Shown: positions 9,135-27,100 of the stretch, in pieces | How the letters are laid out: every line of letters starts with the position of its first letter | Numbering within the stretch: position 1 is the stretch's first letter | DNA from: Halorussus rarus | GTDB taxonomy: Archaea; Halobacteriota; Halobacteria; Halobacteriales; Haladaptataceae | DNA: 32,000 nt | Direction of reading: 5' to 3' | Assembly: GCF_003369835.1 (NCBI RefSeq) | Contig: NZ_QPMJ01000001.1 | Coordinates: 1,079,589-1,111,588, forward strand | Translations under genes and position numbers: made by a program | The notes under the pieces: model-generated | What the model was told of the DNA's origin: nothing | What the model saw: the letters and a program-made list of their open reading frames with translations, nothing else | Databases searched by the model: none

Positions 9135-9273
9135 TCTACCGGTTCGGATTCGACCTTTTGCTGGTGGCCCGCTGTTAGATTCGGCAAACACTGGGCAGCA
9201 CGCTTTCCCACAATTATAAGACACGCCGAATACTTGCTCGTTGTATGTCATCGCGGGCGGGAATCCCGATACA

Positions 9274-9309
9274 GCGTACTGCCGTCCCGTCCGTTTCGTG
9301 GCAGTACGC
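9274..9309 (+). promoter_or_regulatory. perfect 10-bp stem / 16-nt loop hairpin 15 nt upstream of the pglX ATG
   Basis: GCGTACTGCC (9274-9283) is the exact reverse complement of GGCAGTACGC (9300-9309). The loop is gtcccgtccgtttcgt. It lies in the 190-bp brxC-pglX spacer, downstream of a TTATAA element (9214-9219). Confidence 0.5.
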
Positions 9310-9324
9310 GACCCTCTGATATCC

Positions 9325-12300: not shown

Positions 12301-13014
12301 TCCCCTATCTCAGTCGCAGAAATCAGACACGAGGAAGGATTGTACGCGTCTGAAGTAGAAGAAGGGTGGGGAGGGGACATCGTTTCGTTTGTTGTTGGAG
12401 TCCTGTTTGGAAGGTGGGAAATCAACGCTGAATTCGATACATTGCAAGATGAGCTATTAGTCTTCTCGTCGGACACTCACCTTGGCAAGGTTCAGGAGGC
12501 GTTGAACCAGTGTGATGACCAGATGAGCGCTCAGAGCCTCAACACCCTTCTCGGTCAAGATCCTGTTGAGTGGTTCAGAAACCGTTTTTTCCGCCACCAC
12601 CACTGCAAGGAATACCGTCGCCGAGGCCAGCGAATCCCCATCTACTGGCAACTAGAAAGCCCAGAGGGTGCGTTTAGTTGTTATGTCTACTACCACGGGA
12701 TTGATGAGACCACACTGCCGAAACTTCGGGGGCAGTACATCGATCCTAGGGTTGAAGAATTGGAGAATGAACGCGACACACTCCAAGCACAGACAAGCGG
12801 CGAGAATCCAGATCCGGAGCTCCTTGATCGCCTAGAAACTGTTGAGGAGGGTCTGTCCGACATTCGTGAGTTCGGCGATATGATCGATCAAATGATTGAT
12901 GACGGGGTTACAGTTGATACTGAGAGAGGTATCTGGGAGAATATCAAAGAGTGGGACCAGTACGAACTCCTCGAAACCGGACTCCCGAAACTAAAATCGA
13001 GCTATTCGAGGTGA
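9325..13014 (+). CDS. pglX: BREX N6-adenine DNA methyltransferase PglX
   Basis: The ORF is open from TTG 9241, but the ATG at 9325 follows a strong hairpin and gives MSTTHGQPG... (1229 aa). SAM-binding motif I is VLDPACGSGHMLF (10216-10254). Catalytic motif IV is NPPY (10882-10893, in VVVSNPPYL). Size and position are typical of PglX. Confidence 0.9.
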   Translation: MSTTHGQPGLSSDQRSTIRSTILSTRHTLEDELRRQLEKYGIYEDKRLPLEDLSHLSTEERHTRRTLDAAIERELESTEGDLERSITNYVREATKTYLNRFVALKTIEVRGLVEETITERPEYGNRSYMHHTVAEIAGELTNAPDDGFDAALDLAYQEIGAEIRMIFEESEHTAIDLDAQVREQVLDELDAIDDDAWESDEALGWVYQYFGEEEREEIDDRVDEENYKIAGTDIATKTQLFTPRYIVEWMVDNSLGRTWLEMQGERTNIDDEGNCFYLAPLEDSLTDRESKPVEEITVLDPACGSGHMLFYAFDVLYQMYLEEGEIPEEYIPREILRNNLHGIDIDSGAVQIAALSLYLKAKEHSPDVEIPQLNVVSADAVLINGERKAKVLDRADSDLEQEILEQIWQSFDDIRELGSLVQVEDRIDELLDEYREELELGGQTQITNQGELTGQSTFVSGGEEHSWDTLREDLLEKTREIARNGLEQDDPVEEMFANEVGKTVELLDLLVDEYDVVVSNPPYLSDRKMSNEVKEFLKSGYISHQNLYSAFIERNTKFLAGNGLSAMITPEGFMFQYDFRSLRPYLLENMAILDTVHLSRYGFAQQKDVYTAAYVMRNQSEDSTTTSRFFRMTHEQEEYDTYEKKEQKLPELIKTQRNQKSHPDVFVVDQSTFFDLPRTPFVYRFGDEILSAISQHDSVEEVSEAVLEGLSTGDDDRFLRSWWEIDSEDIGPEERYRSIAMGGDPMEYFDSPEMVVDWGDKGKELRNFEGSHLRNEGYYGKEGIHFRKFGNYFTVRKHESGWFFTPTARLIKTSSTEADFTVMAMLCSSMNRYILNVLNPQIHFNISAVESVPAELSKETQRQVTDYAKRGLDERKTQQSLKETKLEFDPDKFYDNLESLIYERERMESLVQIHHGMIDNEIFRDYELSEDTVELIYDEVPKNLARLPIADVNYTTQPDVEIGSKQKIDDLPSLIKSSDGEDLREISEDIDVSPISVAEIRHEEGLYASEVEEGWGGDIVSFVVGVLFGRWEINAEFDTLQDELLVFSSDTHLGKVQEALNQCDDQMSAQSLNTLLGQDPVEWFRNRFFRHHHCKEYRRRGQRIPIYWQLESPEGAFSCYVYYHGIDETTLPKLRGQYIDPRVEELENERDTLQAQTSGENPDPELLDRLETVEEGLSDIREFGDMIDQMIDDGVTVDTERGIWENIKEWDQYELLETGLPKLKSSYSR

Positions 13015-13020
13015 TTTGAC

Positions 13021-15447
13021 ATGGGAGATCTCGCGGACAGCATTATCACGGAACTCCGGCAAAAGTTCGATCGACACCCGGTCTGGGTGTGGTATGACGC
13101 CCAAGAGAAGTACAAGGGCGTCCTCGACGAGGTCGAAGTGGCCCTCGACGGCGTCACGCTCGCACGATACGATGGCAGCTACTTCGAACTGAAGCGCCGC
13201 CTCTACGAAGAGGATCCGAACTACGAGAAGGACTGGCTGTTCTACATTCCCGAGTCGCGAAACGATGCCGAGTGGTTCCGCGACGTCCACTCACTCGGGC
13301 GACAGTACCGCGTCGGCCAGGACATCGACGACACGCCCGTGACGCAGTTCCTCGTCGAGCACGACGAAGAGATCCCTGACGCGTACGAGGACTGGGGACA
13401 GAACCGCGAGGTTCAGCGCCTGGCCTTCTTCTGCGTTCTCTTCGACACCGCTGGCCCGGCAACCGACGACTGGGTCCGTGCCTACCTCTCGAATCCGGAA
13501 GAGTACCGTGAGACGATCGAAGAAAACGCGATGGCCGACGCCTGGGACGCCCAACTCCGAGAGGAATACGGTGTCACCGCGGGACTCGATCCGAAAGAGC
13601 TAGCGACCCAGCTCCTCTTTGGCGAAGTGGCCAGTCGGGCACCGACATCCCGGTACGACGAACTCGCGGCTGACGACACCCGCGCTGCTGCGGCATTTTG
13701 TGACGAGTGGCAACAATACGCCCCTGCCGAGTTCACACGCTATGCGCAGAAGATCGCGGAGGAATACGACCTTGCGAAGGCCGTCATCGACTCCGACCGC
13801 ATTCACTGGGACGCGACCGCGTTCAAGGGAATCGACATGGGCCTCATCCGGCTGGTGATGAAACGACTTGCCGAAGAGACCTACGCAGACCTCCCCGATA
13901 TCGCGGCAGATTTGCAGCAGACAGTCACTGAGAGACAGGACAGCTTCTGGAGCAACGAGGACCTTGTCGATTGGTCAGTCCCAGTCCTGGCGGTCGAAAC
14001 CCTCCAGCATATCGGAACTATCGACGCCGACGAAGCTAAGACGCTCTCATCGGTGGAACTCGCCCAGAAGTACACGAGTGACGATGGATGGTGGCAAGTC
14101 GATGCGGCCTATCGGCAGTATATCAATGCCACCCAGGAGGCTACCTTCCCATATCCGAACGAAACCACGGTGAAGGAGCGGGTCACTCAACACTACATGT
14201 CCTTCCTCCAAGGAGTGAACCGCCCGCTTGCGGACATTCTGAGTGACGACCCGACCCTCGGGACACCCCAGACTTCGTTCTACGATGAGTTCGCGGACCT
14301 TGACAACGGGACGGCGATCATCATCTGTGACGGGCTTCGCTACGAACTCGCCGAAGCGATCAAACAGAACCTCGGACGGCGGACGGACTTCGAGCAAGAC
14401 CTGAGCGCAGTCAGCGCGGCTCTCCCCTCGATCACCGAAGTTGGGATGGCCGCACACCTACCTGGAGAACTCGGCCTCTCTCTCGAAGATGATGACCTCG
14501 TCGTGACCAGTGGCGGTGAGGAGATGACCGGAAAGTCAGACCGCGTCGACAGACTCAGCGCCGCAGGCTTCGAGGTGGTAGATATGGACGAGGTGAGCAG
14601 CATCTCGTTGGAGAACCTGACGGAGTCTGACCCTGTCCCAAGAGTCGTCTACTCCGGAACGATAGACAAACTCGGTGAGAATCTCGACGACGACGCAGCC
14701 TTCAGCCAGGTGGACTCCCACGTTGACGACGTCGAACGGACTGTCCAGCGACTAAAGCAGGCCGGATACACTCGGTTCGTCATCACGAGCGACCACGGGT
14801 TCCTCTACACGGATCGGTTGTCCGACGACCTCAAAGTCGAATCACCCGACCTTGCTCCGGTCGTCAAACGACGATTCGCAGCCGCTGACAGCGATGCTCC
14901 ACTCGTCGATACGGGCGAATTCATCGAAGTCGATTCCGATGCGCTGTCTGATCTCGGCATCAACGCTCCCGAACTCAAGCTGCTCTTCCCTCGAAGTGTT
15001 GCCTGTTTCAAGGCTCAGGGTGGGAACATGCAGTACTTCCACGGTGGGATTTCGCTCCAAGAACTCCTCGTTCCGTGCCTCACGGTGACCACCGGCGAGA
15101 TAGAAGAAAGCGCGTCGATCAGTTATGACGTCTCGATCCCCGACCCGATCACGAACTCGATAATCTCCATTGAGATTGAGGCCAAGAGTGGACAAGTGGC
15201 ATTCGACCCAGCACCGATACTAGAGATCCGTGCGAACATCGATGACGAGGCGGTGGCGGACCCCGTAACGATGGAAATCTCTCCGGGGACCAATAGCGAA
15301 CGTATTCGTCTCAAACAGGGGGCAATCTCTGGAGAGAGCTCGGTCCAGTTCGAAGTTATTGACACCGACACCCGAGAAACGATCACGCGGAAAACGGTGG
15401 AACTTGATCTACTCTTTGGAGACGATGATATGGGATTTGACGTGTAA
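13021..15447 (+). CDS. pglZ: BREX alkaline-phosphatase-fold protein PglZ
   Basis: 808-codon ORF starting 6 nt after the pglX stop. It contains AIIICDGLRYELAE and FVITSDHGFLY, the two hallmark PglZ-domain segments (metal-binding D and DHG). Confidence 0.9.
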   Translation: MGDLADSIITELRQKFDRHPVWVWYDAQEKYKGVLDEVEVALDGVTLARYDGSYFELKRRLYEEDPNYEKDWLFYIPESRNDAEWFRDVHSLGRQYRVGQDIDDTPVTQFLVEHDEEIPDAYEDWGQNREVQRLAFFCVLFDTAGPATDDWVRAYLSNPEEYRETIEENAMADAWDAQLREEYGVTAGLDPKELATQLLFGEVASRAPTSRYDELAADDTRAAAAFCDEWQQYAPAEFTRYAQKIAEEYDLAKAVIDSDRIHWDATAFKGIDMGLIRLVMKRLAEETYADLPDIAADLQQTVTERQDSFWSNEDLVDWSVPVLAVETLQHIGTIDADEAKTLSSVELAQKYTSDDGWWQVDAAYRQYINATQEATFPYPNETTVKERVTQHYMSFLQGVNRPLADILSDDPTLGTPQTSFYDEFADLDNGTAIIICDGLRYELAEAIKQNLGRRTDFEQDLSAVSAALPSITEVGMAAHLPGELGLSLEDDDLVVTSGGEEMTGKSDRVDRLSAAGFEVVDMDEVSSISLENLTESDPVPRVVYSGTIDKLGENLDDDAAFSQVDSHVDDVERTVQRLKQAGYTRFVITSDHGFLYTDRLSDDLKVESPDLAPVVKRRFAAADSDAPLVDTGEFIEVDSDALSDLGINAPELKLLFPRSVACFKAQGGNMQYFHGGISLQELLVPCLTVTTGEIEESASISYDVSIPDPITNSIISIEIEAKSGQVAFDPAPILEIRANIDDEAVADPVTMEISPGTNSERIRLKQGAISGESSVQFEVIDTDTRETITRKTVELDLLFGDDDMGFDV

Positions 15448-15590
15448 CCTACAATCCCCTTGCATGTGTTAGAATAGATACCATTATATCCTGCCACCAG
15501 TCAATGATTGCTGAGAGTATGGATATAGGTACTACTAAATGAAAGGATGAAAAGCTAAAAATAGTGATCAGGGAGTTCCCCTGTAAGCAA

Positions 15591-15630
15591 AGGGCATAAG
15601 AATGTGGTGTTCCCACATTTTGTAGGCCCT
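15591..15630 (+). other. two-tier hairpin in the pglZ-brxL spacer
   Basis: Inner stem AATGTGG (15601-15607) / CCACATT (15613-15619) with a 5-nt loop. Outer stem AGGGC (15591-15595) / GCCCT (15626-15630). It sits in an AT-rich, non-coding-looking 390-bp gap. Confidence 0.35.
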
Positions 15631-15777
15631 GAGCCGGCTTCTAACTAAACGGATAGCGGTTAGTATGTGCTCGCTGTCAGTATTGTTGTGTATTAGCGAT
15701 AGCGCTTGAATCCTCAACCGAAGAGACTCTGCCGCCCGTATCTGAACTGAAGCCAATAGATGAGTATCGGTAACCGG

Positions 15778-15812
15778 TATTGGTGTTCCGCCTGGGATGA
15801 CCGACACCAATA
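15778..15812. promoter_or_regulatory. 9-bp perfect inverted repeat (TATTGGTGT-N17-ACACCAATA) 28 nt upstream of the brxL ATG
   Basis: 15778-15786 is the exact reverse complement of 15804-15812. Its position just upstream of the brxL start is compatible with an operator overlapping a promoter, or with a 5' RNA hairpin. Confidence 0.4.
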
Positions 15813-15839
15813 TGCCCCCGGCTCTGTTTCTTGAATATA

Positions 15840-17867
15840 ATGACTACTGAGGACGTCGATCAGAAAGCTCTCGACGTCTTTCCCGGACGCGTCGTCCGGA
15901 AGGATCTTGTTCAAGATATCAAGTCGGGAGTAAACGTCCCCACCTATGTTCTCGAATACCTCATCGGACAATACTGTGCCACAGACGATGAGGAATCGCT
16001 TGAGGAGGGGCTCGAAAAAGTCAAACAGATTCTGTCGAAGCACTACGTTCGCCCTGATGAGGCCGAGTACGTCAAAAGCGAAGTACGTGAACGTGGTCGA
16101 TACCGAGTCATCGACAAAGTAACCGTCAGACTCGACGAGCAGCAGGACGCCTACATCGGCTCGTTCGTCAACCTCGGGCTCAACGACGTCGAAATTAACG
16201 AACACCTCGTCAGCAAGCACCCGAAGCTTCTGGGCGGCGGTGTCTGGGCCATCATCGATCTGGAATACCTTCCCGACAACGCGAATAGTCCCAAGAGCCT
16301 GTTCGGCATCGACTCGTTCAAACCGATACAGGTATCGAATCTTGACCTGGACCAGTTGAAAGACCGTCGACAAGAATTCACGCGTGACGAGTGGATGGAC
16401 CTTCTCCTCCAGAGCGTCGGGTACGACCCTACCGCGTTCAGCGACCGCGAGAAACTGCTATTTTTGACTCGGTGTCTTCCCCTCGTCGAATCCAACTACA
16501 ATTACGTCGAGCTGGGCCCCCGCGGAACTGGGAAGAGTTATTTATATCGGGAAATCAGCCCGCACTCGATTCTCATCTCGGGTGGAAAAACCACCGTTGC
16601 GAAGCTCTTTCTGAACCTCAACACGGGGCGGATTGGACTCGTTGGCCGTTGGGATGTCGTTGCATTCGACGAAGTCGGTGGCCTCCAGTTCAGCGACTCT
16701 GAAGCGGTCCAGATGCTCAAAGACTACATGGAGTCTGGAAGCTTCTCTCGCGGCACTGAAGAACTCACAGCGCAGGCCTCGATGGTCTACGTCGGAAACA
16801 TCGATCTGGATGTCGAAGGCGTTCTCAAGAGCTCCCACCTCTTCGAGCCGTTCCCAGAAGATATGCAGGACCTCGCTCTCATCGATCGCTTCCACTACTA
16901 TCTCCCTGGCTGGGAAGTCCCGAAGATGCGCTCCGAATTCTTCGGCGACCAGTTCGGATTCATTGTGGATTACTTCGCCGAGTTTGTGCGCGAACTGCGG
17001 AAGGAATCTTACGGTGATGCGATCAACGAGGAGTTCGCGTTCGGAGACCACCTGAACCAACGAGACGAAAGGGCCGTCCGGAAGACGGTATCTGGCCTGA
17101 TCAAACTACTCCATCCGCATGGGGAATACACGAAAGAGGAACTCCGCGAATATCTTGAATTCGCTATGGAGGGGCGACGTCGTGTCAAGGAGCAGTTGAA
17201 ACGGATGGGTGGAATGGAGTATCGGGCAGTCGAATTCTCCTATCTGGACTTAGAAACGAAAGAAGAACTCTACGTTCAGGTTCCCGAGGAGGCCGATGAG
17301 GCGCTTATTCCGCCCGGTACACAGCAAGCAGGTACTGTCTACACCATCGGCGAAAGCGAAGGTCGTCACGCTCCGTTCCGTATCGAAACTCAAACGCTTC
17401 CCGGTTCCGGGAAGACGAACATCTCTGGAACCCCGGGGAAAAAGATGAAAGAGTCGTTCGAGACTGCGTGCGACTACCTTCAGGCGAATATGCGAGAACT
17501 CCGCCGCGATGAGACGCTGGATGAGTACAATATCAATGTACAGGTACTCAATCCAGCAGACGCGAGCGAAGGTGGTGAGACAAGTGTCGGATTACTTGTT
17601 GGGATCGTCTCCGGCATTCTCGACCGACCGGTCCGCCCACAAGCCGTAGTACTAGGTGCTATGAGTTTGATGGGAGAACTGGTTGCCGTGAGTTCATTAG
17701 TGGATAAACTCCAGTTAGCCGCTGATTCAGGAGCAAAGACGGTGTTACTCCCCGCGAAAAATAAAGAGGACCTAGCGAAGATACCCGATGAGCTCTTGGA
17801 TCAACTTCAACTCGTATTTTACACCAATCCGCTTGATGCAGCTAGTAAAGCGATAGAGTTGGAGTAA
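15840..17867 (+). CDS. brxL: BREX Lon-like protease/ATPase BrxL
   Basis: The ORF is open from TTG 15831; the first ATG is at 15840. The N-terminus FPGRVVRKDLV is typical of BrxL. Walker A is GPRGTGKSY (16515-16541). The C-terminal ~180 aa is a Lon-protease-like domain (VGLLVGIVSGIL...GAMSLMGEL...AKTVLLPAKN). Confidence 0.9.
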   Translation: MTTEDVDQKALDVFPGRVVRKDLVQDIKSGVNVPTYVLEYLIGQYCATDDEESLEEGLEKVKQILSKHYVRPDEAEYVKSEVRERGRYRVIDKVTVRLDEQQDAYIGSFVNLGLNDVEINEHLVSKHPKLLGGGVWAIIDLEYLPDNANSPKSLFGIDSFKPIQVSNLDLDQLKDRRQEFTRDEWMDLLLQSVGYDPTAFSDREKLLFLTRCLPLVESNYNYVELGPRGTGKSYLYREISPHSILISGGKTTVAKLFLNLNTGRIGLVGRWDVVAFDEVGGLQFSDSEAVQMLKDYMESGSFSRGTEELTAQASMVYVGNIDLDVEGVLKSSHLFEPFPEDMQDLALIDRFHYYLPGWEVPKMRSEFFGDQFGFIVDYFAEFVRELRKESYGDAINEEFAFGDHLNQRDERAVRKTVSGLIKLLHPHGEYTKEELREYLEFAMEGRRRVKEQLKRMGGMEYRAVEFSYLDLETKEELYVQVPEEADEALIPPGTQQAGTVYTIGESEGRHAPFRIETQTLPGSGKTNISGTPGKKMKESFETACDYLQANMRELRRDETLDEYNINVQVLNPADASEGGETSVGLLVGIVSGILDRPVRPQAVVLGAMSLMGELVAVSSLVDKLQLAADSGAKTVLLPAKNKEDLAKIPDELLDQLQLVFYTNPLDAASKAIELE

Positions 17868-17888: not shown

Positions 17889-18119
17889 TTATTCGTCTAA
17901 TTCCCAAAGAAGGGAATTTCCGACTTTTTTGCTTCTAATCTCCCCATCCTCTTCGATCGATTTTAATTTCAGATAGGCGGTTCGGCGATCACAGCCAACA
18001 TAATCCGAAATATCTGTAGTTCCACTTGGTCCGAGTTCTGCTAAGGCTTCCAGAAAATCCTGGTGAGGGTATTCCTCAGTAAACTTCCCACTTTTTTCGT
18101 CCCGGTCCCGGTCGCCCAT
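17889..18119 (-). CDS. small winged-helix-turn-helix DNA-binding protein (putative transcriptional regulator)
   Basis: 76-codon ORF with ATG at 18119. GPSGTTDISDYVGCDRRTAYLKLKSIEEDGEIRSKKVGNSLLWELDE fits helix-turn-helix plus wing (KKVGxxxxW). It is convergent with brxL and divergent from the RAMP operon across a repeat-bearing spacer. Confidence 0.7.
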   Translation of the reverse strand: MGDRDRDEKSGKFTEEYPHQDFLEALAELGPSGTTDISDYVGCDRRTAYLKLKSIEEDGEIRSKKVGNSLLWELDE

Positions 18120-18165
18120 AGTACTGGTGTGAGTGCCATTTCACATATGACTGCTGGATGACTCT

Positions 18166-18243
18166 CCATTAGTCGAGTGTCCAAAGGTTTATACCATTAG
18201 TCGAGTGTCCAAAGGTTTATACCATTAGACGAGCGACTAATGG
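18166..18243. repeat. two exact abutting 28-bp direct repeats followed by a related 22-bp palindrome (operator-like)
   Basis: CCATTAGTCGAGTGTCCAAAGGTTTATA occurs at 18166-18193 and again at 18194-18221. It is followed by CCATTAGACG-AG-CGACTAATGG (18222-18243), whose right arm is the reverse complement of CCATTAGTCG. The 10-mer CCATTAG(T/A)CG therefore occurs three times direct and once inverted. Confidence 0.9.
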
Positions 18244-18331
18244 ATGTGAACTCAGCCGTTGGGCACTGATCGACAGAAGTGCCCGGGTGTTGCAGCACCC
18301 AGGCTGGGTTCCGAATACCGTCCGAGAACCC

Positions 18332-18868
18332 ATGAAGAAATTAAATCCAGAAACACAAGAAGGCGACGACAGATCGCTAATTGAAGAAATAAATCAAATA
18401 AATTATATTTCGCTCGGGGAAGGGGCCGCGACGTGTCAAGCGTGCGGATCTCCTCTTCACGAGGGGGATTCGGTTGTTGCGTACGTGTTTCGCCCGGCTG
18501 GAGAGCTGCTTTTTCAGACTGGTTACGTGGTTTGCGGTGACGACGAACACGAACTTCCGAAGGAGTACCCGTTGGGTGTGCGGGAGTTGCTCGTCGAGGG
18601 GCGTGTTGGGTGGTGTTCGGATGGGGCGACGCAGTCGTCGTGGCCGGTGTTGCTTGCGCCTGAAGTGGTCGGTGTGAGCGCGGCAGCGACGAAGTCACTA
18701 CGTCTGATTCCGGATGGTGGTAGCACGGGGTCGAACGTTGCCTCCGGTGTTGAGGAGCGGGAGTCCGCCAAGGCATCGGAGAAGGTGTCTGTTGGTGAGA
18801 CGCGTCGTCGAGCTGACGGAGCGGATGGTGACGTGGTTCGCGGATTGTTCTGGGGTGAGCAGCGATGA
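18332..18868 (+). CDS. hypothetical protein, first gene of the RAMP operon (single CxxC plus C-x4-H; possible Zn-binding)
   Basis: The ORF is open from GTG 18287; the first ATG is at 18332. It contains CQAC (18434-18445), then VVCGDDEH. Its stop overlaps the next start (ATGA, 18865-18868). The first ~90 nt are conspicuously AT-rich compared with the rest. Confidence 0.55.
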   Translation: MKKLNPETQEGDDRSLIEEINQINYISLGEGAATCQACGSPLHEGDSVVAYVFRPAGELLFQTGYVVCGDDEHELPKEYPLGVRELLVEGRVGWCSDGATQSSWPVLLAPEVVGVSAAATKSLRLIPDGGSTGSNVASGVEERESAKASEKVSVGETRRRADGADGDVVRGLFWGEQR

Positions 18869-19830
18869 CGTCGGGCCTCGTGGATTCGCATCTTGATGTC
18901 GAGTTGGATGTGCCGCGGTCGGTGGAGGAGATGTTGCTGCCGGATGTGTACGTTGGGCTCGAAATCGACCTGCTGTCTCCAGGGGACGGCATCGTCACGG
19001 ATCGGCATCATGCGTCGGCGGATCGGTATGAGTCGGATGATCCGATGAATCAGATTGAAGGACAGATAAGCCCATTCACCCTGTCAGGCTGGCTGCGACA
19101 CGGGTGTGAGGAGGTCGTCCAGGTCGCTGGTGCGACGGCGTGTCACCCTGGTGAACCGAATGCGGACTACATGCGTGCGGAGACGTATGAGCGTGACTTG
19201 GAGTCCGGGTACCACGAGAAGGGAACTTGTCTGGATGAATACGATGATGGGTGTGTCGTCTACGACTTGTTCGGTGGGTTCGGTGCGCAGCCGGGGAAGT
19301 TGCTGCGCCGTCCGGTGTCGTTCTCCCCGATTCGGAGACAGGTGGATGTCCTGGACGGAGAGGCGGAAGCGCACTACCGACAGATCTCGAACCAAGTGCG
19401 GTCGCGGAACGAGGAGGACGGTGGGCAGCCGCTCCGCCAGGCGGATCGTGATGTGCTCGGGAACGTCGAGGGAACGTGGAAGTTGACGCTCCGGGAACTG
19501 AAGCCGGAGTTCGTCGGGTTACTCTTGGAAGCTGTGTCGTTCCTTGATGCGCATAGTGACCAGTTCGAGTTCCAGCTCGGCGGCGCACGGAATTTTGGGG
19601 CTGGTATCGCTGATGTGTGGGTGATAAATCCGCTGTACAGCGACCAGGAGGTGCGTCGCGTGTTTGACCGTGCGAAGGCGGTGACGTCTGCGATGGAGGA
19701 GAAGGATGAGGTGTGGCGGTCGGAGTGCCGGCCGGAGTTCGTCAGGGCGTTGCAGGCGCGGGTTGCGCAGCGTGATGGTGATGTGTCGTTCCCTGGTGCT
19801 GGTGACGGGGCAGGGGGTGGTTCGGCATGA
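18865..19830 (+). CDS. Cas7-like RAMP protein (Csm3/Cmr4/Csf2-like motif pattern)
   Basis: 321-codon ORF. It has an N-terminal beta-strand-like YVGLEIDLLSPG, then SGWLRHG (19084-19104; compare the S-x-x-K/R-G-x-x-R RAMP motif). A Cys/His-bearing insertion (ACHPGE...GTCLDEYDDGC) ends in DLFGGFG (19264-19284). A C-terminal glycine-rich loop reads LGGARNFGAG-IADVWV (19576-19605). Confidence 0.6.
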   Translation: MTSGLVDSHLDVELDVPRSVEEMLLPDVYVGLEIDLLSPGDGIVTDRHHASADRYESDDPMNQIEGQISPFTLSGWLRHGCEEVVQVAGATACHPGEPNADYMRAETYERDLESGYHEKGTCLDEYDDGCVVYDLFGGFGAQPGKLLRRPVSFSPIRRQVDVLDGEAEAHYRQISNQVRSRNEEDGGQPLRQADRDVLGNVEGTWKLTLRELKPEFVGLLLEAVSFLDAHSDQFEFQLGGARNFGAGIADVWVINPLYSDQEVRRVFDRAKAVTSAMEEKDEVWRSECRPEFVRALQARVAQRDGDVSFPGAGDGAGGGSA

Positions 19831-20162
19831 CTAGTGGGCGTGATGGTCGGGATGCGGGCGATGATGATTCGGGAAAGATGGATCAGGACGGTGCGGAACT
19901 GGACAAATTAGCCGAGCCAGCGACTGGTCTGCGGACTGCTCAAGAACGGGCGGCATCGAAGGAGTCGATTGTTGCGTCTGGTGGTGGGGAGGCGGGTGCT
20001 GCGAGTGATGGGTCCTCAGCGACTGGTGGCTCTGATACTGACGGTCTCGATGAGTTGATGGAGCCGTCGACGGGGCTCCGCACAGCCCAGGAACAAGAGA
20101 CGGAGACATCGACTGGTGATGAGGATGGTGAAGCTGGCCGGGCGGGTGATCGGGGTGCGTGA
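19827..20162 (+). CDS. small acidic Gly/Ser/Asp-rich protein with a duplicated L-D-x-L-x-E-P-x-T-G-L-R-T-A-Q-E motif
   Basis: 111-codon ORF. Its start overlaps the upstream stop (ATGA, 19827-19830). The motif copies lie at 19899-19946 and 20046-20093. They are identical in peptide over TGLRTAQE but differ at the third position in 7 of 8 codons, which argues for translation and purifying selection. Confidence 0.6.
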   Translation: MTSGRDGRDAGDDDSGKMDQDGAELDKLAEPATGLRTAQERAASKESIVASGGGEAGAASDGSSATGGSDTDGLDELMEPSTGLRTAQEQETETSTGDEDGEAGRAGDRGA

Positions 20163-20976
20163 TGCGATTTCGGATTCTGACGTAGAGGGTGACGCCGATG
20201 CGGTGGACCCGTTGGTGGCGGCGTATCGGCACGATGTGCATAAGCTGCGGGCGCGGGCGCATAGTCATGCAGTGGATTGGGTTGACGGTGTGCGGGTGAA
20301 TGAGCCGGTGCCGGACGGGGCGGACGGGGATGCGGCGTTGTTGAGTCGGCCGCGCGGTGACCCGGAGCAGACGTTGGATGCGCACGGGTCGTGGCGGCGC
20401 GTGTCGCTGCTGACCGGGGAGGTCGTATCGAGTGATTCGGTTGAGTCGCTGGACGGGCTGCTCGTGGCAGATGACGCCGAGGAGTTGCACGCGACGTGGT
20501 TGTCGGCGTCATTGCCGGCCGGGTTCAATGAGTCGCCGTACTACCCGTACACGTCGGTGAAGTACCACACGCTCTTGACGGCGGTGCTGTTGGATAATTA
20601 CCGGGGAGGTCACGAGTTCGGCGACCTGTTCCTCGCAGTTGAGGCTCCGGACACGGAGTCTGTAACCCCGCATCGAACAGTACTCTCGACGGGTGGGGTA
20701 TCGTTGGCTGTGACTGGGGAGCCGGGGGATCGGCCGGCAGCGCGGTTGGGTGACGCGCCAGCACGGTCGTTCGCAGACACGTGGGCGCGGCTCCCGGCGC
20801 TCCCGTTTGACGTGGCCGGGTCACGTCGGTGGCGCGTGCTGGATTCGCAGTTGCGGCGGATCCGTTCGTGGTCGGTGGCGCTACAGTTTATCGAGGACTA
20901 CGTCGCGGCGTTCGCACCGGCGCAGTGCGCTGGGCATGGTCGCCGTGGCCGTCGAGGTGGAGGTGAGGGTCGGTGA
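20116..20976 (+). CDS. hypothetical protein with an Arg/Gly-rich C-terminal tail; start uncertain
   Basis: The ORF is open from GTG 20116. Alternative starts are ATG 20119, ATG 20125 and GTG 20155; the last overlaps the upstream stop by 8 nt. It contains PYTSVKYHTLLTAVLLDNYRGGHEFGDLF and ends in GHGRRGRRGGGEGR (20932-20973). Its stop overlaps the next start (GTGA, 20973-20976). Confidence 0.5.
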   Translation: MMRMVKLAGRVIGVRDAISDSDVEGDADAVDPLVAAYRHDVHKLRARAHSHAVDWVDGVRVNEPVPDGADGDAALLSRPRGDPEQTLDAHGSWRRVSLLTGEVVSSDSVESLDGLLVADDAEELHATWLSASLPAGFNESPYYPYTSVKYHTLLTAVLLDNYRGGHEFGDLFLAVEAPDTESVTPHRTVLSTGGVSLAVTGEPGDRPAARLGDAPARSFADTWARLPALPFDVAGSRRWRVLDSQLRRIRSWSVALQFIEDYVAAFAPAQCAGHGRRGRRGGGEGR

Positions 20977-21905
20977 CGCGGCTCCAACAGGTTCTCTTCG
21001 AGTTGGAGTCGCCGTACTCCGGGCATCCGTATTTCGTGTCGGGTAACGCCGTGTTCAATGCGGTGGCGCGGCGTGTCGGTGCTGCGACGCGTGGGGCACT
21101 GCATGTGAGTCACGGCGTGTTTCTCCCGGGTGAGTACGGTGAGTACCCGGCAGGCGCGTCGCAGGATGGGTATGCGGGGAAGCTCGGGTTGTCGTTGCCG
21201 GACGTGGAGTCGTACGAGGACTTGTTCGTGTTTCGGGACGCGGCGCAGCGGTGGCTTCTGGATTCACGGCCGCGGGATGCGCATAACGTACACCCGTTGC
21301 AAACTCATGGTGGCCGTGTTGCGTTCGACGATTCGTGTTGGTTCGGGCGGCCGGCGGAGATGCGGGATCACCGCCGGTCCGTGTCGTGGTTCCTGCACTG
21401 CTACTTGCACGCCGGGCGTGACGGTGTCGTACCGGTCGCGGAGGATGTACTGGAGGGGATTCGTGTTGGTGGGTGGCGGAATTACGGGTTCGGGGATGTG
21501 TCCGTGGTGGAGACACAACTCGTGGATCTCGATGCGTTGGATTACGCTGGGGTGCGAGGGGCTGACGAGTTGCAGTTGGAGCTTGTGACGCCGTTCGTGC
21601 TGGTGAGTGAGGCTCCGAACGCGGATTCGCAGTCGGTGCCGTGGTGGTGGGACGTACCTACTGGCGGGTTGCGTCGCGGTGAAACGCGCCTCGTGAACGG
21701 TGACGAGTCGTACGCTGTGGCGACGGTTGATCACGGGCAGGTCGTCGAGTACGTCGGAGATGACGCGGGGAGAACGGCGAAGAACGGTGTGACGCGGGTT
21801 GGAACGCATTCTCGGTTCGGGTTCGGGGAGTTTCGGCTGCGCCCGAGTGACGCGGACCGGGTGCCGGAGCGTGCGGCGGCCGCGTCGGACGGAGGTGGTG
21901 TGTGA
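20973..21905 (+). CDS. Cas5-like (Csm4/Cmr3/Csf3-like) RAMP protein with two glycine-rich loops
   Basis: 310-codon ORF starting at GTG. The N-terminus VLFELESPY...VSGNAVFNAV resembles the RAMP beta1/helix1 pattern. Two G-rich loops, each closing a roughly 150-aa half, read IRVGGWRNYGFGDVSV (21462-21494) and RVGTHSRFGFGEFRL (21795-21827). This is the G-x-x-x-x-x-G-F-G loop characteristic of RAMPs. Confidence 0.55.
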   Translation: MTRLQQVLFELESPYSGHPYFVSGNAVFNAVARRVGAATRGALHVSHGVFLPGEYGEYPAGASQDGYAGKLGLSLPDVESYEDLFVFRDAAQRWLLDSRPRDAHNVHPLQTHGGRVAFDDSCWFGRPAEMRDHRRSVSWFLHCYLHAGRDGVVPVAEDVLEGIRVGGWRNYGFGDVSVVETQLVDLDALDYAGVRGADELQLELVTPFVLVSEAPNADSQSVPWWWDVPTGGLRRGETRLVNGDESYAVATVDHGQVVEYVGDDAGRTAKNGVTRVGTHSRFGFGEFRLRPSDADRVPERAAAASDGGGV

Positions 21906-22567
21906 TGGTGTTGGAGCAAGTGGCGTTCGATATTGAGACGACCGGGTTCGATGTTGATGACGAGGTGACGACGGTTGGGTTTGCGGTGCCGATGGGTGTA
22001 CGCGTGTTCCTGCAGACTGGCGAGCGGGACGCGTCGGGTATTGAGTCGCGTGTTGACTCAGCAGTGCCGGAGACGCTCGTGCGAGTATCTACGCACGCGT
22101 CTGAACGTGAGTTGCTGGTCGCGGTATCGGAGTTCGTTGCCGAGCGGTTCCGTGATGGTGACGTGTTGCTCGTGGCGTACAATGGGGAGCGGTGGAACGG
22201 CGGGTTCGATCTACCGTTCCTGCGAACGCGGTACGCGAAGTGCGAGTTGGCGTGGCCGTTCGATGTGCCGTACGCGGACGTGATGCCGCTCGTCACCGAC
22301 CGGTTCAACACGACTGTTGATGGTGGCGAGAACGGTGATCTCGTGACGGCGTACGACGTGTTGTGCGACGGATCGCACGGTGATCTCGACCCGTTCACGG
22401 ACAGCAAAGAGGCTGTGACATCGTTCGAGGACGGGCGGTTTGCGGAGCTCGTGTTGCATAACGTGGCGGATGTGCTGCGGACACGGGCGCTCGGCCGCGT
22501 TGCGGAGCGGTACTGTTCGAAATCCGAGTTCAAAGTGAAGTCGCTGACGCCGACGAGGTCGATCTGA
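21905..22567 (+). CDS. DEDD-type 3'-5' exonuclease (RNase H-like fold, PolB-exonuclease/COG3359-like)
   Basis: The ATG at 21905 shares its A with the upstream TGA (TGATG). Exo I is FDIETTG (D 21929-21931, E 21935-21937). Exo II-like is LVAYNGERWNGGFDLPFL. Exo III-like is LHNVAD (H-x3-D). Length is 220 aa. Confidence 0.7.
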   Translation: MVLEQVAFDIETTGFDVDDEVTTVGFAVPMGVRVFLQTGERDASGIESRVDSAVPETLVRVSTHASERELLVAVSEFVAERFRDGDVLLVAYNGERWNGGFDLPFLRTRYAKCELAWPFDVPYADVMPLVTDRFNTTVDGGENGDLVTAYDVLCDGSHGDLDPFTDSKEAVTSFEDGRFAELVLHNVADVLRTRALGRVAERYCSKSEFKVKSLTPTRSI

Positions 22568-22758
22568 GATGCAGGTGGATCGAGTCCTACGTGGGGTTCG
22601 CAGTAGGTGGGTTCGTGACTGGGTGGTGCCGCCGGATGCACTGTGAGCGGTACGCGGCGGCGACACGGGTACGACGAGCTGCGAATTGAAGCGATACTCC
22701 ACGACTTCCCGTTCAAGCGGTGTGAACAGTTGCAGAACCGACCACTGGAAATCAGCGA

Positions 22759-23826
22759 ATGACAGAAACAGAGTCACACAATCACGACGACGCGACGAGG
22801 ATGAGCGAATCGAGCGGTGAACGAACGGAGCGGTTGACGCCTGAGGAGTGCCACGAGACGGTTGATCCGAAGACGCGGGAAGCGGTGCTTGACGAGTACG
22901 CCCATCGCTGCCAGGTCTGCGGGCGACGCGGACCGGAGAAAGGCGGGTTAGCGACGCTGCATGTCCACCATATCGAACGCGACCCGGACGGGATGGGTGA
23001 GCATGATATGGAGAATCTGACGTTGCTGTGCCGGTCGTGCCACAGTTGGTTCCATCAACAGAGCACGCCTGACGACGCGCCCGTCGAGATCACGGAGGAA
23101 GACCAGAGCGTGTTGCTTCCGCAGGACATCGAGATCCTACGGTTCTTAGCAGATGCGGGTCCGGCGCGAACGGGTGATATTGCGTCCGGGGTGCCGACTG
23201 ACTTGACGGTGTCAGCGGTTCGTGAGCGGTTGTGGGTGCTGATGGGACTCGATAACTTGGTCGAAGCCCGCGACCGGCAGATCGTCGATAAGGACGTCGA
23301 GACCGGGGAATGGGGACTCACCGAACAGATCGAGAACTCCGCTCGCGGGCACATCCCGGACGACCCACAACTGTTGCTCCAGCGGATGGAGGACGAGAAA
23401 GTCCGACAGGCACTCGACCGCGGGTGTGATCGCAGTGACGTCATCAACGTGTTCGATGTCTCGCGGCGGACGACGTTCAACAAGCAGAAGCGAGCCTGTG
23501 CGTACGACTTCCCGTTGGCCGCGTTCAACCGCGGGGGACGGCCGACCGACAGCGAGCGGTCGGAACGCAGTCCGGGCACGACCGACACAGTAGAGGACGA
23601 CGGTGATGAACAGCAGCGACTTGACGCAGTCCCCGAACAGGACACAGACTCGTTGGGCCGGACAGAAACGTGGGGGACGACTGAGACCGCCCCCGAAGCG
23701 CGGCCCTCGAATGAGAGCGTGGAGGGTACTGATCAAGCGGTGAGTGAGAACGGTTCCGAGGAGGAGTTGCGTGTGCACCTACAGCAAGCAATTGAGGCGC
23801 TACAGGAAGTGAACTCGGAGTTGTAG
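22759..23826 (+). CDS. HNH endonuclease fused to a wHTH-like domain and an acidic C-terminal tail
   Basis: 355-codon ORF. CQVCGRRG...LHVHHIERD...NLTLLCRSCHSWFH is the full HNH/zinc-finger signature (CxxC ... HH ... N ... CxxC-H). It is followed by DIEILRFLADAGPARTGDIASGV...RERLWVLMGLDNLVEA (wHTH-like). Confidence 0.85.
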   Translation: MTETESHNHDDATRMSESSGERTERLTPEECHETVDPKTREAVLDEYAHRCQVCGRRGPEKGGLATLHVHHIERDPDGMGEHDMENLTLLCRSCHSWFHQQSTPDDAPVEITEEDQSVLLPQDIEILRFLADAGPARTGDIASGVPTDLTVSAVRERLWVLMGLDNLVEARDRQIVDKDVETGEWGLTEQIENSARGHIPDDPQLLLQRMEDEKVRQALDRGCDRSDVINVFDVSRRTTFNKQKRACAYDFPLAAFNRGGRPTDSERSERSPGTTDTVEDDGDEQQRLDAVPEQDTDSLGRTETWGTTETAPEARPSNESVEGTDQAVSENGSEEELRVHLQQAIEALQEVNSEL

Positions 23827-24132: not shown

Positions 24133-27100
24133 ATGCCCGGAATTCCCCCAAATCACCCACAAACGCCGCGTGAAGCAAGAGAGCTCGTAGAGAAACGCCG
24201 GCAGACTCTCCTAGAGGGATACGAGAGTGACAACGAGGTCATTCAGGATCTCTTCCATAATTACGACCGGGATGTCAAGCGGGACCTTGACACTCCAGCA
24301 CAGGTGATTCCTGAGCTGTTGCAGAATGCTGATGACGTAAAGGAGTGTGAGACAGTCGAGATCCTAATCTCAGAAGATGAACTCGTTGTTCGGAACGATG
24401 GCCGACCACTTCTGGAAGATGAGTTCGAAGCCATATGTCACATCGGACAGAGTACAAAGCAGGAGCCGGGGTATATTGGCCACTTTGGCCGTGGGTTCAA
24501 GTCTGTTTTCAGCGTCTCGGATCACCCGCAGGTTCGTTCGGGATTCCTACGCTTCGGCTTCAAACGAGACCGATGCGTTCTACCCCTACATCTCGTAGAT
24601 GAGACGGCCGTTGATGAGATTAAGTACGCACCTGCGACCGAGGTTAGGTTGCCTTTCACTGACCTTTCGGAGTATGATCGGTCACAGCTCATGGGGCAGA
24701 TTGAGTCTCTCCCTCGATTGATGCCGTATCTCCGGAACGTCTCGAAAATCAGTGTCGTTGATCACGGCGAACGGACGACCTATCGACGGGAAGAAACGAC
24801 CAGGGGAGAGCTTACTGAGGTTGAGATTTACAAGAATGAAATTCTCTATGAGAGACGTCATATTTTCGGTATTGAGGAGGTACCACCGGAGGCTGAATTT
24901 TCCGAGCTAGTCAAGCATCGTGCTTTAGAAAACGAGGAGGAGTTCCGAGATGAACCGGTGCCGATCAAGATTTCGTTTCCCGTAGATGAGGATGGCAATC
25001 CAATCTCTGGAGACGAACCCAGTCGGCTGTTCAATTTTTTCCCCACAGAAACGGAACTGGATATTCCGTTCGATATTCAAGCCGATTTTCTTCTTGACTC
25101 TGACCGTTCAAGCCTGCATAATACCAAGAGCCCGTACAACCAGTGGATTTTCGGCCTCGTAAGTGCAGTCTATGAAAAGGCAGTTGAATATTATTTAGAG
25201 CGGGATTCACCCACAACCACTTTTTTGGAACTTGTTCCAACTCGAAGAACACTTGATTCCCATCTTAAACGCATTCAGGAAGATATCTTGGATGTCCTGA
25301 GGGAGCACGAATGCATTCTAGGTCAGGATGGGGAATACCACCTCCCAGAGCAGATCATTGTGCCCGATTCCCGACTGGAAGGGCTGCTCTCTGAGTCAGA
25401 TGTTCAAGAACTGTTCGGAGAGGCTACCAATTATCCTGCAGACTCGCTGACGCAGCGGTGTCTCAATGATCTCGTCGGGTTGGGTTTGATTGATGAGCTT
25501 ACGATTGCCAGTCTTGCCCAAGTTGAGCAGGATAGTAATGTTTACCGCGAAAAGTCAACTTCCGAGTTGTTACGTTTGGCTGCCCTTTTCAACGAATTGT
25601 GGGAAGACACATATCGGGATAAACGATCTTACAACGATGAACGGAGAGAGTTCCTTAGTGCAGTTAAGCAAATTCCGCTGGTTCCACTCCAAACCGGTGC
25701 TGTAGTCAGCAGTAACGACACGGACTCGGATCCGGTTCTTCCGCCCGATAGCGGGGGAGACGAGTATGAGATTTTCACTGATCGGATTACACTAGTAGAC
25801 CTGACTTTTGACGAGTCGGATGGCAATGGTAAGGTTGAGGATCACAAAGCAGTCGCAGCTGATGCTCGATCCTTTTTTGAGAACGCACTAGAGCTCTCGG
25901 TCGTTGAAGATGACTACATCATCACCGAGGTAATCGCAGAAGCTTTCAAAAATCCAAGCGCCGAGACTGATTCGACGTTGGATGCATTTCTAGAGTTTGT
26001 TATCAGTGACAAACACCGACGGAAGGTTGCGCGTAAGAAGAACGCAATTCGACTGAGGGTCAAATCGTCCAGCAGCGACGAGTCAGTATATAAAAAGCCA
26101 TCCGAGCTCTATCTCCCAAAGGCCTATGGCTTGGACTACGATCTGGAGATACTTCTTGAGGATATCGACTCTGCACAGTTCGTGACACCATCATACCGGG
26201 AGTTAGGGAACTCGCTGTCACCGTGGTCGAGTTTCTTGACGAAGGCGGGGGTGAGAGACAAACTCGAAGTAACGGAGGAAGGTGCGAAAACTCGTGAAAG
26301 ATTCCGTGATAAGGACGATTTAGAGACGGAACTTGAGTCGTGTGGTGACAGATCGACTAATATTCCGCAAGCACCGAGACACTCGGGGGATACCTACGAT
26401 ACGTGGCTGAGGGGGTATCGGTACGCGCTCTCGGATTACGAAATCAGCGACACATTCGAAGACTTGCTGGACATCATCCCAGAGAAAGGGAGAGAATCGG
26501 GAGCACAGGCGTGGGAGCTGGCAACGATGCTTGCGTCGTGCTGGGACTACTACGAGGATCGTCTGAATAAGGAACTCTACTACACAGCCCAGTATGGGAA
26601 AGGAAATCCGTTCCGCACCAAATCTCAGGGGACACAATGCCCGTCCAAATTCGCTAATCGGATTCGAAACACAGCATGGTGTCCAACAAAAACAGGGACA
26701 ATAAGCCCCCCATCAGTGTTGCTGGTTGAGATACCTCGAACACAGGGACAACCTGACGGGCGGTATCTCAATAATGATCTCCCGTTTTCGGAAGCGAATT
26801 ATAATGGTCTGAATATCAGCACCCGGTTAGATCCGTCGTCTGTCTTGAAATTACTCACACAGGCCCCCACGGTCTGGAGTGATGGAGAACCGAGTGAAAT
26901 ACGAACTGCAGTTAACGATCAGCTTGATCAGTTCAAAGCTGGTCTGGCCGATTGTTCGGACGACGAGGCTGAAAGGTTGCTCTCGGAACTCCGGAAGGCT
27001 CCGTTTCTATACGTCGAGGCAGCCGAGACACAATTCCGAACGTCGACACAAGTGGTGCTTGAGGGGATCAGTCTCGGTGACCAATTTGTCTCAATATCAA

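Follow-up and report, generated by a model that had tools for sequence, protein, structure and literature searches.

To which family does an operon belong that encodes Cas7-like and Cas5-like proteins in a stretch of DNA devoid of CRISPR arrays, and how might such an operon work? The question is raised by a locus of Halorussus rarus, analysed here within a 32,000-nt stretch (the window; contig NZ_QPMJ01000001.1, positions 1,079,589–1,111,588, forward strand). A preliminary description of the window reported six plus-strand open reading frames (ORFs A–F) at 18287–22567 and presented them as a candidate novel system that matches no named subtype. Our analysis gives a different answer. The locus almost certainly belongs to the HRAMP (haloarchaeal RAMP) family and, since it fits a family that was named in 2019, the novelty of the operon is unsupported. 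The functional unit runs past 22567: it takes in the gene of an HNH endonuclease downstream and a divergent gene for a winged helix-turn-helix (wHTH) protein upstream. The features of the locus, in window coordinates and with protein sizes in amino acids (aa), are as follows:

17889–18119, minus strand: divergent wHTH gene, TrmB-like, 76 aa
18166–18243: promoter/operator, an inverted repeat bracketing the BRE and TATA elements, with a 28-bp tandem duplication
18246–18334, plus strand: leader RNA, a three-way junction described by a covariance model
18332–18868, plus strand: ORF A (18287–18868 and 193 aa in the ORF listing; start revised from GTG 18287 to ATG 18332, the most likely start)
18865–19830, plus strand: ORF B, 321 aa, Cas7-group RAMP, Csm3-like; HRAMP Cas7 homologue
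19827–20162, plus strand: ORF C, 111 aa, hypervariable, acidic, probably disordered
20116–20976, plus strand: ORF D, 286 aa, DUF8168 (Pfam PF26506)
20973–21905, plus strand: ORF E, 310 aa, Cas5-group RAMP, Cmr3-like; HRAMP Cas5 homologue
21902–22567, plus strand: ORF F, 221 aa, DEDD-type 3'-5' exonuclease
22685–22703, plus strand: motif ATTGAAGCGATAC(T/A)CCA(C/G)G, invariant block in the spacer between F and the HNH gene
22759–23826, plus strand: HNH gene (G), HNH endonuclease with a wHTH-like/acidic C-terminal region

All six ORFs were found at the coordinates first reported. The reported stop/start overlaps were also recovered (ATGA at 18865–18868 and 19827–19830, GTGA at 20973–20976, TGATG at 21903–21907), as was the GTG/ATG start of ORF D (20116–20155) within the end of ORF C, and the genes of the operon are translationally coupled. 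The motifs quoted in the preliminary description can be read in the translations: SGWLRHG, DLFGGFG and QLGGARNFGAG in B, the loops GGWRNYGFG and GTHSRFGFG in E, two copies of P[AS]TGLRTAQE in C, which had been called a disordered repeat-motif protein, and an RG-rich tail in D.

The proposal that B is a Cas7-like and E a Cas5-like RAMP protein is borne out by profile matches in both families and by RAMP-fold matches of the E model. Among 32 homologues of B, 14 match the Pfam RAMPs family (PF03787; best 3.7e-5) and 12 match PADLOC Csm3 (best 7.5e-5). B has 557 homologues, which are haloarchaeal wherever the organism is named and 67–90% identical among the 120 matches listed; one of them carries the NCBI name "RAMP superfamily CRISPR-associated protein". 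The B-family profile found no relevant match among PDB sequences, and hhalign gave no meaningful alignment of the B family with the verified Csm3 of Staphylococcus epidermidis, both profiles being too shallow. PADLOC Cmr3 is matched by 36 of 36 E homologues (best 1.1e-6) and weakly by the E protein of the window itself. Compared with the PDB, the AlphaFold model of E (pLDDT, the predicted local distance difference test, 66.6; pTM, the predicted template modelling score, 0.71) best matches the folds of Cas6, a chain of a type III-A Csm complex (6mus_E), Cmr1 and RAMP chains of Cascade, with E values from 2e-3 to 6e-2. E is thus modelled as a RAMP protein with a double RNA-recognition motif, a result that fits Cas5 and Cas6 alike.

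HRAMP was reportedly named and described in 2019 by Makarova, Karamycheva, Shah, Vestergaard, Garrett and Koonin (FEMS Microbiol Lett), in whose abstract the module is said to include an additional conserved uncharacterised protein. HRAMP loci combine Cas5 and Cas7 homologues with further nucleases and with proteins of uncharacterised function; they have diverged so far that their origin is difficult to trace, but they are somewhat closer to type III, and they are expected to act by mechanisms distinct from CRISPR (PMC8730458). They are array-less and typically feature HNH and PD-(D/E)xK nucleases (PMC8730458, PMC12669027). The present locus resembles them in its halobacterial host, in its diverged Cas7 (B) and Cas5 (E), in the conserved uncharacterised protein D that lies between these two in 78 of 79 loci, in the HNH nuclease (39 loci) and the DEDD exonuclease (45 loci), and in having no array or adaptation genes in the window; nothing here contradicts membership. 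The libraries are silent on ORFs A–D of the window, for which Pfam, PADLOC and NCBIfam return nothing significant, and NCBI names nearly all homologues of the operon proteins 'hypothetical protein'. Both observations favour the earlier view of an unnamed CRISPR-derived system. That view is nevertheless hardly credible, as the family was named in 2019 and is included in the 2025 CRISPR classification (PMC12669027).

For the conservation of the operon, a scan of one genome per species yielded 79 related loci (L001–L079), all in Halobacteria, and these were searched with the proteins of the window by tblastn. B is present in 79 loci, D in 78, E in 73, A in 56, F in 45, the wHTH gene in 43, the HNH gene in 39, BrxL in 8 and C in 2. 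At least four loci without a match to E (L003, L054, L058, L069) break off within D or shortly behind it. Conservation of the neighbourhood, proposed earlier as a check, is evident in the synteny of B, D and E, retained in 73–78 of the 79 loci; the operon is conserved as a unit far beyond chance, and D is the conserved signature protein of the three-gene core B, D and E. Two variants can be distinguished. The large variant (L001–L053 and the window) has the organization wHTH / A-B-(C)-D-(X)-E-F-HNH, where X is a gene described below. The small variant (L055–L079) consists of B-D-E only, with a B protein about 57% identical, and no conserved partner genes were found beside it beyond transposase-like ORFs.

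As first noted, the 32 kb contain no array and no cas1, cas2, cas6, Cas10 or Cas3. Tandem Repeats Finder (TRF) and a k-mer array scan detected no CRISPR-like array in the window, and the cas1/2/3/6/10 models matched none of the 26 window ORFs scanned against Pfam and PADLOC (six of the ORFs were also compared with NCBIfam). A true CRISPR array lies within 10 kb of only one of the 79 loci. This is L075, a small-variant locus of Halarchaeum sp. P4, in which an I-B-type array (13526–14394, about 14 repeats of GTTACAGACGAACCCTAGTCGGGTTGAAGC) is located about 1 kb 3' of the Cas5-like gene.

Homologues of D are precomputed as PF26506 (DUF8168). Among 1.84 billion proteins, 146 representatives were identified, all of at most 418 aa and down to about 25% identity. 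In proteins sharing 24–67% identity, the residues HDxHK (H39, D40, H42, K43), D70, S77-R78, E139, S147, H151 and W252 are invariant, and H49, like HDxHK, D70 and H151, is invariant or nearly so. Helices are predicted for the N-terminal 165 aa, and in the AlphaFold model (pLDDT 69, pTM 0.74) this helical part is followed by a small sheet and helices. Foldseek comparison of the model with the PDB returned Cas10/Csm1/Cmr2 chains as 10 of the 12 best matches. Three short motifs of D (HDVHK, GADGDAALLSRP and TSVKYHTLLTAVLL) occur in the same order as their counterparts HDIGK, IADNIASGIDRR and ISLYDHSRITCAIA in Cas10 of S. epidermidis, the comparison sequence being identical to PDB 7uzw_F; written as patterns, HDxHK, AD..A..SR and TSLKYH follow the order of HDIGK, ADNIASG.DRR and SLYDHS in the Cas10 N-terminus. 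The HD-domain models of Pfam find no match in D. Motifs and model are suggestive, and only suggestive, of a shrunken large subunit, maybe derived from Cas10, in which an HD-type site would be retained.

These features relate the locus to type III (Csm/Cmr) systems: B matches Csm3, E matches Cmr3, the Cas7 and Cas5 genes are adjacent to the presumed large subunit, D carries the three motifs colinear with the Cas10 N-terminus, and Cas10 chains lead the fold matches of its model. In contrast, the Palm/GGDD cyclase of Cas10, Cas11, Cas6, an array and CARF effectors are all missing from the locus, D has 286 aa compared with about 750 aa for Cas10, and HNH and DEDD nucleases replace the known type III effectors. 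Cas10 models match no ORF, and neither an array for CRISPR RNA (crRNA) nor Cas6 was found within the window. ARAMP (Asgard archaeal RAMP) modules are distantly related, array-less and type III-derived, and are likewise accompanied by nucleases (PMC8730458, PMC12669027); they differ in that a distinct Cas1, absent from this locus, is usual in ARAMP (PMC8730458). Type IV-B systems share a Cas7 and Cas5 core, a small non-enzymatic 'large subunit', the usual lack of arrays and a frequent location on plasmids, and their complexes bind heterogeneous small RNAs. B and E, however, show sequence affinity to Csm3 and Cmr3 and not to the Csf families. The Csf1, Csf2, Csf3, CysH and Cas11 models gave no match, and PADLOC searches with the B, D and E families hit Csm3/Cmr3/III-D models only.

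Two nucleases are encoded at the 3' end of the large variant. The last of the six ORFs had been described as a DEDD exonuclease, and F indeed matches Pfam RNase_H_2 (1.4e-5) and DNA_pol_B_exo1 (4e-5) and PADLOC DEDDh (2e-5), and features the motifs FDIETTG, GFDLPF and HNVAD; its comparison with PDB sequences gave no match. F is found exclusively in the large variant. The product of the HNH gene matches Pfam HNH at 3.6e-11. The HNH nuclease had been taken for a neighbour in the defence island: the gene is there, but it belongs to the module, as it lies directly 3' of F in 39 of the 79 loci.

The remaining genes of the operon are less conserved. ORF A, restricted to the large variant, has a conserved N-terminal domain of about 130 aa, with a CxxC...C...H pattern, followed by a variable tail. 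The motifs C..C, GR.G and W.VL..P are conserved in the family alignment, library searches returned a weak zinc-ribbon match, and the cysteine/histidine pattern is a possible zinc-binding module. In ORF C the motif L(D/M)EP.TGLRTAQE occurs twice (19917–19946 and 20064–20093). By sequence, C is found in L001 and L002 only, and acidic ORFs with the motif LDEL.P....LR(T/S)AQE occupy the C position in L010 (10957–11205), L012 (10948–11211) and L018 (10927–11220). L029 features a longer acidic ORF at this position (10978–11511) with no visible motif, in L004 a C-like ORF is joined to D, and in L007 it is missing. The C protein might act as a mimic of nucleic acid or as a docking peptide.

A further gene, X, is located between D and E in about 29 relatives, where the D-E gap spans 150–600 nt. 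It encodes a G/R/C/V/W-rich protein of 100–200 aa, and its stop codon overlaps the start of E. Examples, in the coordinates of the individual loci, are given below; about 25 other loci carry the gene as well.

L004, 11853–12283: gene X
L012, 12040–12467: gene X
L018, 12055–12507: gene X
L050, 11814–12271: gene X

X contains 2–7 copies of an 18-nt repeat, CACTGGAAACGGGGTGTG. A mini CRISPR array was considered for this repeat and ruled out by the spacings, 43 of 48 of which are multiples of three, and by the open frame. One frame, which ends in a TGA overlapping the E start, stays open throughout the D-E gap in about 29 of 32 loci; the chance of such an open frame, calculated per locus, is 0.00–0.27 in 31 of the 32 loci and mostly 0.01–0.05. 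Spacings and open frame together therefore identify the D-E gap as a gene. The repeat is read in two frames depending on the lineage (TGNGVC or TLETGCV), and its variable positions are synonymous in one of them only. Neither an X gene nor a copy of the repeat is present in the window. The repeat resembles the X/E and E/F junctions. In a Halorubrum subgroup (L040, L044 and others), the D-E gap contains a different repeat of about 155 nt. The C-terminal tails of B, D, E and X are G-rich, reading GGGSA, GGEGR, GGGV and GGVCG before the stop codon, and A ends in GEQR. The DNA encoding the G-rich tails (GGxGGTG-like; 19815–19830, 20960–20976 and 21890–21905, and in relatives) resembles a Shine-Dalgarno sequence for the next overlapping gene.

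The rapid evolution of the acidic C and of the basic, G/R/C-rich X, as in an arms race, bears on a guide-free reading of the system, in which the RAMP proteins would form a protein scaffold or sensor that responds to a viral protein, or to the acidic, nucleic-acid-mimicking C, and switches on the nucleases. The lack of an array, of Cas6 and of adaptation genes is in keeping with this idea. We nevertheless consider it quite improbable: B and E keep, without variation, the glycine-rich loops and the SGxLRH helix through which RAMP proteins of known complexes contact RNA, and C and X are dispensable in many loci.

Upstream of ORF A, the inverted repeat CCATTAGTCG ... CGACTAATGG (arms 18194–18203 and 18234–18243) surrounds the transcription factor B-recognition element (BRE) and TATA box, AAAGGTTTATA (TATA 18216–18221). 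An inverted repeat placed across the TATA box resembles, and suggests, the site of a dimeric repressor. The palindrome is preserved in an alignment of the wHTH-A spacer from 10 loci, in which both arms are altered jointly in L001 and L007, to CCATTATGAG / CTCATAATGG. In the window alone, the left arm and the TATA box are duplicated in a 28-bp tandem repeat (18166–18221; TRF: period 28, 2.4 copies, 97% matches), which places a second TATA at 18188–18193, 28 bp from the first. The product of the wHTH gene matches Pfam TrmB at 4.6e-4, under the family's own cut-off. As the gene is kept at the same divergent position in 43 of the 79 loci, and as its variants change together with the operator half-sites in the locus alignment, the 76-aa TrmB-like protein is probably the repressor of the operon.

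The approximately 90 nt between the TATA box and ATG 18332 are better conserved than the A protein. Relatives differ by indels of 1–2 nt in this leader, to which the 45 nt that separate GTG 18287 from ATG 18332 belong. The leader is therefore non-coding, and ATG 18332 replaces GTG 18287 as the most likely start of ORF A; the same indels rule out the leader as an N-terminus of A. The leader of the window folds into a three-way junction (minimum free energy −38.5 kcal/mol, z = −3.5) composed of the helices P0 (18248–18257 with 18302–18311), P1 (18261–18267 with 18278–18284) and P2 (18285–18290 with 18295–18300), followed by a 3' tail of 20 nt in which GAACCC (18326–18331) abuts the AUG at 18332. 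A covariance model, R1, built from 12 leader sequences, matches the window once, on the plus strand (18246–18334, 109 bits), and also matches once in every one of the 53 large-variant loci for which upstream sequence exists, always ending at the first ATG. A second model, R2, revealed the leader in at least eight small-variant loci as well. It lies 0.6–0.9 kb 5' of B in the five of these with a tabulated B position and, in the four loci inspected, precedes small ORFs without similarity to A.

The structure is supported by covariation. In a 52-sequence alignment, which was fitted to the covariance model and is therefore biased in favour of structure, 92.8% of the cells are paired and double changes (140 cells) are seen at 18 of the 23 pairs; the covariation measures are not attained by a single one of 500 shuffles, and controls with slid partners pair at 25–45%. 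Compensatory changes in P2 are also seen in the raw sequences, which feature CGGGTG/CACCCG, CGAGTG/CACTCG, CGCGTG/CACGCG, CGGATG/CATCCG and CGCCTG/CAGGCG. An alternative helix, between the 3' strand of P0 (GGGUUC) and the invariant GAACCC at the AUG, is paired in 92.6% of cells. No Rfam family matches the leader at threshold. In the window (15.1 bits) and in L040 (10.9 bits), P2 together with its 3' flank can be aligned over the full length of Rfam CRISPR-DR29; we treat this resemblance as a lead too weak and inconsistent to build on, the scores being far under the gathering score of 39 and L022 giving no match. No sequence elsewhere in the window matches or complements the leader above chance. 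We slightly favour the interpretation of the leader as a cis-regulatory 5' untranslated region (UTR).

A second candidate for a functional RNA is located in the F-G spacer. This spacer is poorly conserved, and its sole invariant block is the motif at 22685–22703, 74 nt 5' of the HNH ATG. The exact 12-mer ATTGAAGCGATAC occurs in 25 loci and lies between F (or E) and the HNH gene in 24 of these; in L040 and L043 a copy is found just past the start codon of A, and in L043 this is the only copy. With at most two mismatches, the motif ATTGAAGCGATACNCCA occurs in about 40 loci, always on the plus strand and, in the 13 loci measured, 66–82 nt from the HNH ATG; no copy was seen at loci lacking the HNH gene. 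It contains ATTGAAGC, the 3' end of haloarchaeal I-B repeats, which gives the 8-nt crRNA handle. The CRISPR repeat of L075 ends in GTTGAAGC. ATTGAAGC precedes a conserved, 'seed-like' block of 11 nt, which is followed by variable sequence. No second repeat is conserved, the 11-nt block occurs just once in the window, and Rfam gives no match. The motif may be a crRNA-handle-like RNA element, and it is at least as likely to be an atypical internal promoter (GAAGC and GATACT, to be compared with CAAAGG and TTTATA at the A promoter). By analogy only, a solitary repeat-like handle with a seed-like block beside a potentially toxic gene is reminiscent of CreTA, the haloarchaeal toxin-antitoxin RNAs that resemble CRISPR; the resemblance does not extend to a second pseudo-repeat or to a cis target with protospacer adjacent motif, and processing of the handle would need Cas6 of the host.

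It is conceivable, if unlikely, that the leader, or an RNA starting at ATTGAAGC (22685), is the missing effector RNA of the system, a fixed scaffold or guide that would be bound by E and coated by B. Known Cas7/Cas5 backbones of class 1 effectors all assemble on RNA, and the leader is the sole strongly covarying RNA structure at the locus, accompanying B-D-E in both variants even when the first ORF differs. The alignment of P2 and its flank with CRISPR-DR29, and the identity of ATTGAAGC with the 3' end of haloarchaeal I-B repeats, ahead of a seed-like block, would also fit. On the other hand, the DR29 scores are low and L022 yields none, and the leader always ends at the start codon with a conserved GAACCCAUG, as expected of a cis-regulatory 5' UTR. 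The window holds neither a complement to the leader nor a repeat of the seed-like block. The ATTGAAGC motif goes with the HNH gene, lacks a conserved second repeat and is readable as a BRE/TATA-like promoter, and no Cas6-type processing enzyme is encoded. For the leader itself, the role of RNA partner of the complex is considerably less probable than that of 5' UTR, and a role other than these two has a similarly low probability. In its most specific form, which we also regard as a minor possibility, the leader RNA would be the dedicated partner of the Cas7/Cas5/DUF8168 complex, serving as a fixed scaffold or guide, or as the site at which the complex senses and controls its own nuclease-bearing operon, and might descend from a CRISPR repeat.

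The module is mobile. B proteins are 86–93% identical across about ten genera, and B is encoded on 23 haloarchaeal plasmids, including megaplasmids of Halobacterium salinarum; both facts indicate that the module moves horizontally. The surroundings in the window are as follows:

12–1082: PD-(D/E)xK protein (DRT-associated model, 1.7e-9)
4126–17867: complete type 1 BREX system (BrxA, BrxB, BrxC, PglX, PglZ, BrxL)
24133–29163: Tiamat TmtA (PADLOC, 8.6e-239)
30073–30981: ADP-ribosylglycohydrolase

The operon had been placed in a defence island between BREX and HNH/GHKL nuclease genes, and its setting is indeed a defence island: BREX is found upstream, and downstream the operon is followed by the HNH gene of the module itself and then by Tiamat TmtA. 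A BrxL protein 88–98% identical to that of the window is encoded beside HRAMP in eight loci from different genera (L010, L013, L031, L032, L035, L036, L042 and L046), about 1 kb 5' of the wHTH gene in seven of them and about 4 kb 5' in L042, which suggests joint transfer of BREX and HRAMP as a single island. Within 18000–23000 of the window, GC skew is strongly positive (+0.19 to +0.30) and AT skew is negative through 22000. The G+C content of 1-kb segments is 55–65% in this region (61–65% over 19000–23000), compared with 45–60% in the flanking BREX genes; skew and composition are consistent with a separate acquisition. In L030, a 51-nt tandem repeat (AAAAACACCGCTGTTTCACGAACACACCCCAATCCTGCAACAACAGCGGTA, 3.9 copies, 96% identical) is located at 18309–18507, about 5 kb 3' of HRAMP.

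Mobility also bears on the possibility that plasmids and islands carry the module as a device for addiction or for competition between elements, and not for antiviral immunity of the host. In such a device the HNH, DEDD and HD nucleases would be restrained by the RAMP complex and the wHTH protein, in the manner of type IV systems or of CreTA-style safeguarding. Its occurrence on 23 haloarchaeal plasmids and megaplasmids, and the frequent transfer indicated by near-identical B proteins in different genera, are what such a device would lead one to expect, and an operator over the TATA box followed by a structured leader would suit a toxic cargo. Mobile genetic elements often carry derived CRISPR variants without arrays as 'guns for hire' (PMC8730458). 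Most loci, however, are chromosomal and lie beside bona fide defence systems (BREX, Tiamat), and neither an antitoxin-like partner nor a self-target was found. We regard an addiction device as improbable, though addiction and defence are not mutually exclusive.

As a whole, the locus is probably best explained as an HRAMP locus, a highly derived array-less relative of type III that is confined to Halobacteria and acts through the nuclease mechanism proposed here; the mechanistic part of this explanation, taken separately, is tentative. From the gene content, we infer a defence function with recruited nucleases. B and E would form a Csm/Cmr-like backbone on a single-stranded nucleic acid, joined by D as the reduced large subunit and possible Cas10 remnant. 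Upon recognition of an invader, the recruited nucleases (HNH, DEDD and perhaps the HD site of D) would destroy DNA, taking the place of signalling by Cas10 and of cleavage guided by crRNA. The wHTH repressor and the leader RNA would hold expression low, and the P0 3' strand GGGUUC may switch to pair with GAACCC beside the AUG.

Several points weigh against this explanation. The B protein of the window itself is below threshold in Pfam and PADLOC (its scores are below E = 1), and the placement of B in Cas7, as opposed to a generic RAMP, derives from weak matches to the Csm3 hidden Markov model (HMM) in about 40% of the homologues. The fold matches between D and Cas10 are not significant (Foldseek E at least 1.2, probability at most 0.15), no Cas10 HMM matches D, and the hhalign alignment of D with Cas10, which covers the second and third motif blocks, is likewise not significant (E 0.2–0.3, 13–14 columns). 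The alternative helix of the leader is nearly invariant and so shows little covariation. The label 'defence' derives from gene content and neighbourhood. Finally, neither an experiment on any HRAMP locus nor an RNA or DNA ligand is known to us.

The HRAMP reviews (PMC8730458, PMC12669027) mention neither the leader RNA and the operator nor the HD-type motifs of DUF8168, the C and X genes and the ATTGAAGC motif, and some of these features may already be included in the 2019 description. As far as can be told from the reviews, the non-coding elements and the D motifs added here are previously unreported features of HRAMP.

HRAMP poses an open problem, that of a Cas7/Cas5 machine stripped of arrays, adaptation and Cas10, and several features of the family make this problem approachable. 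In DUF8168, the invariant residues of HDxHK, AD and KYH allow the survival of a Cas10-like HD nuclease to be tested, the operator and wHTH pair provides a handle for derepression, and the small variant on the megaplasmids of H. salinarum places the module in a genetically tractable host. The family-wide structured RNA at the 5' end of the operon is a candidate ligand or regulator. Should it prove to be the RNA partner of the complex, HRAMP would be the first effector derived from class 1 to use one hard-wired RNA that does not come from an array.

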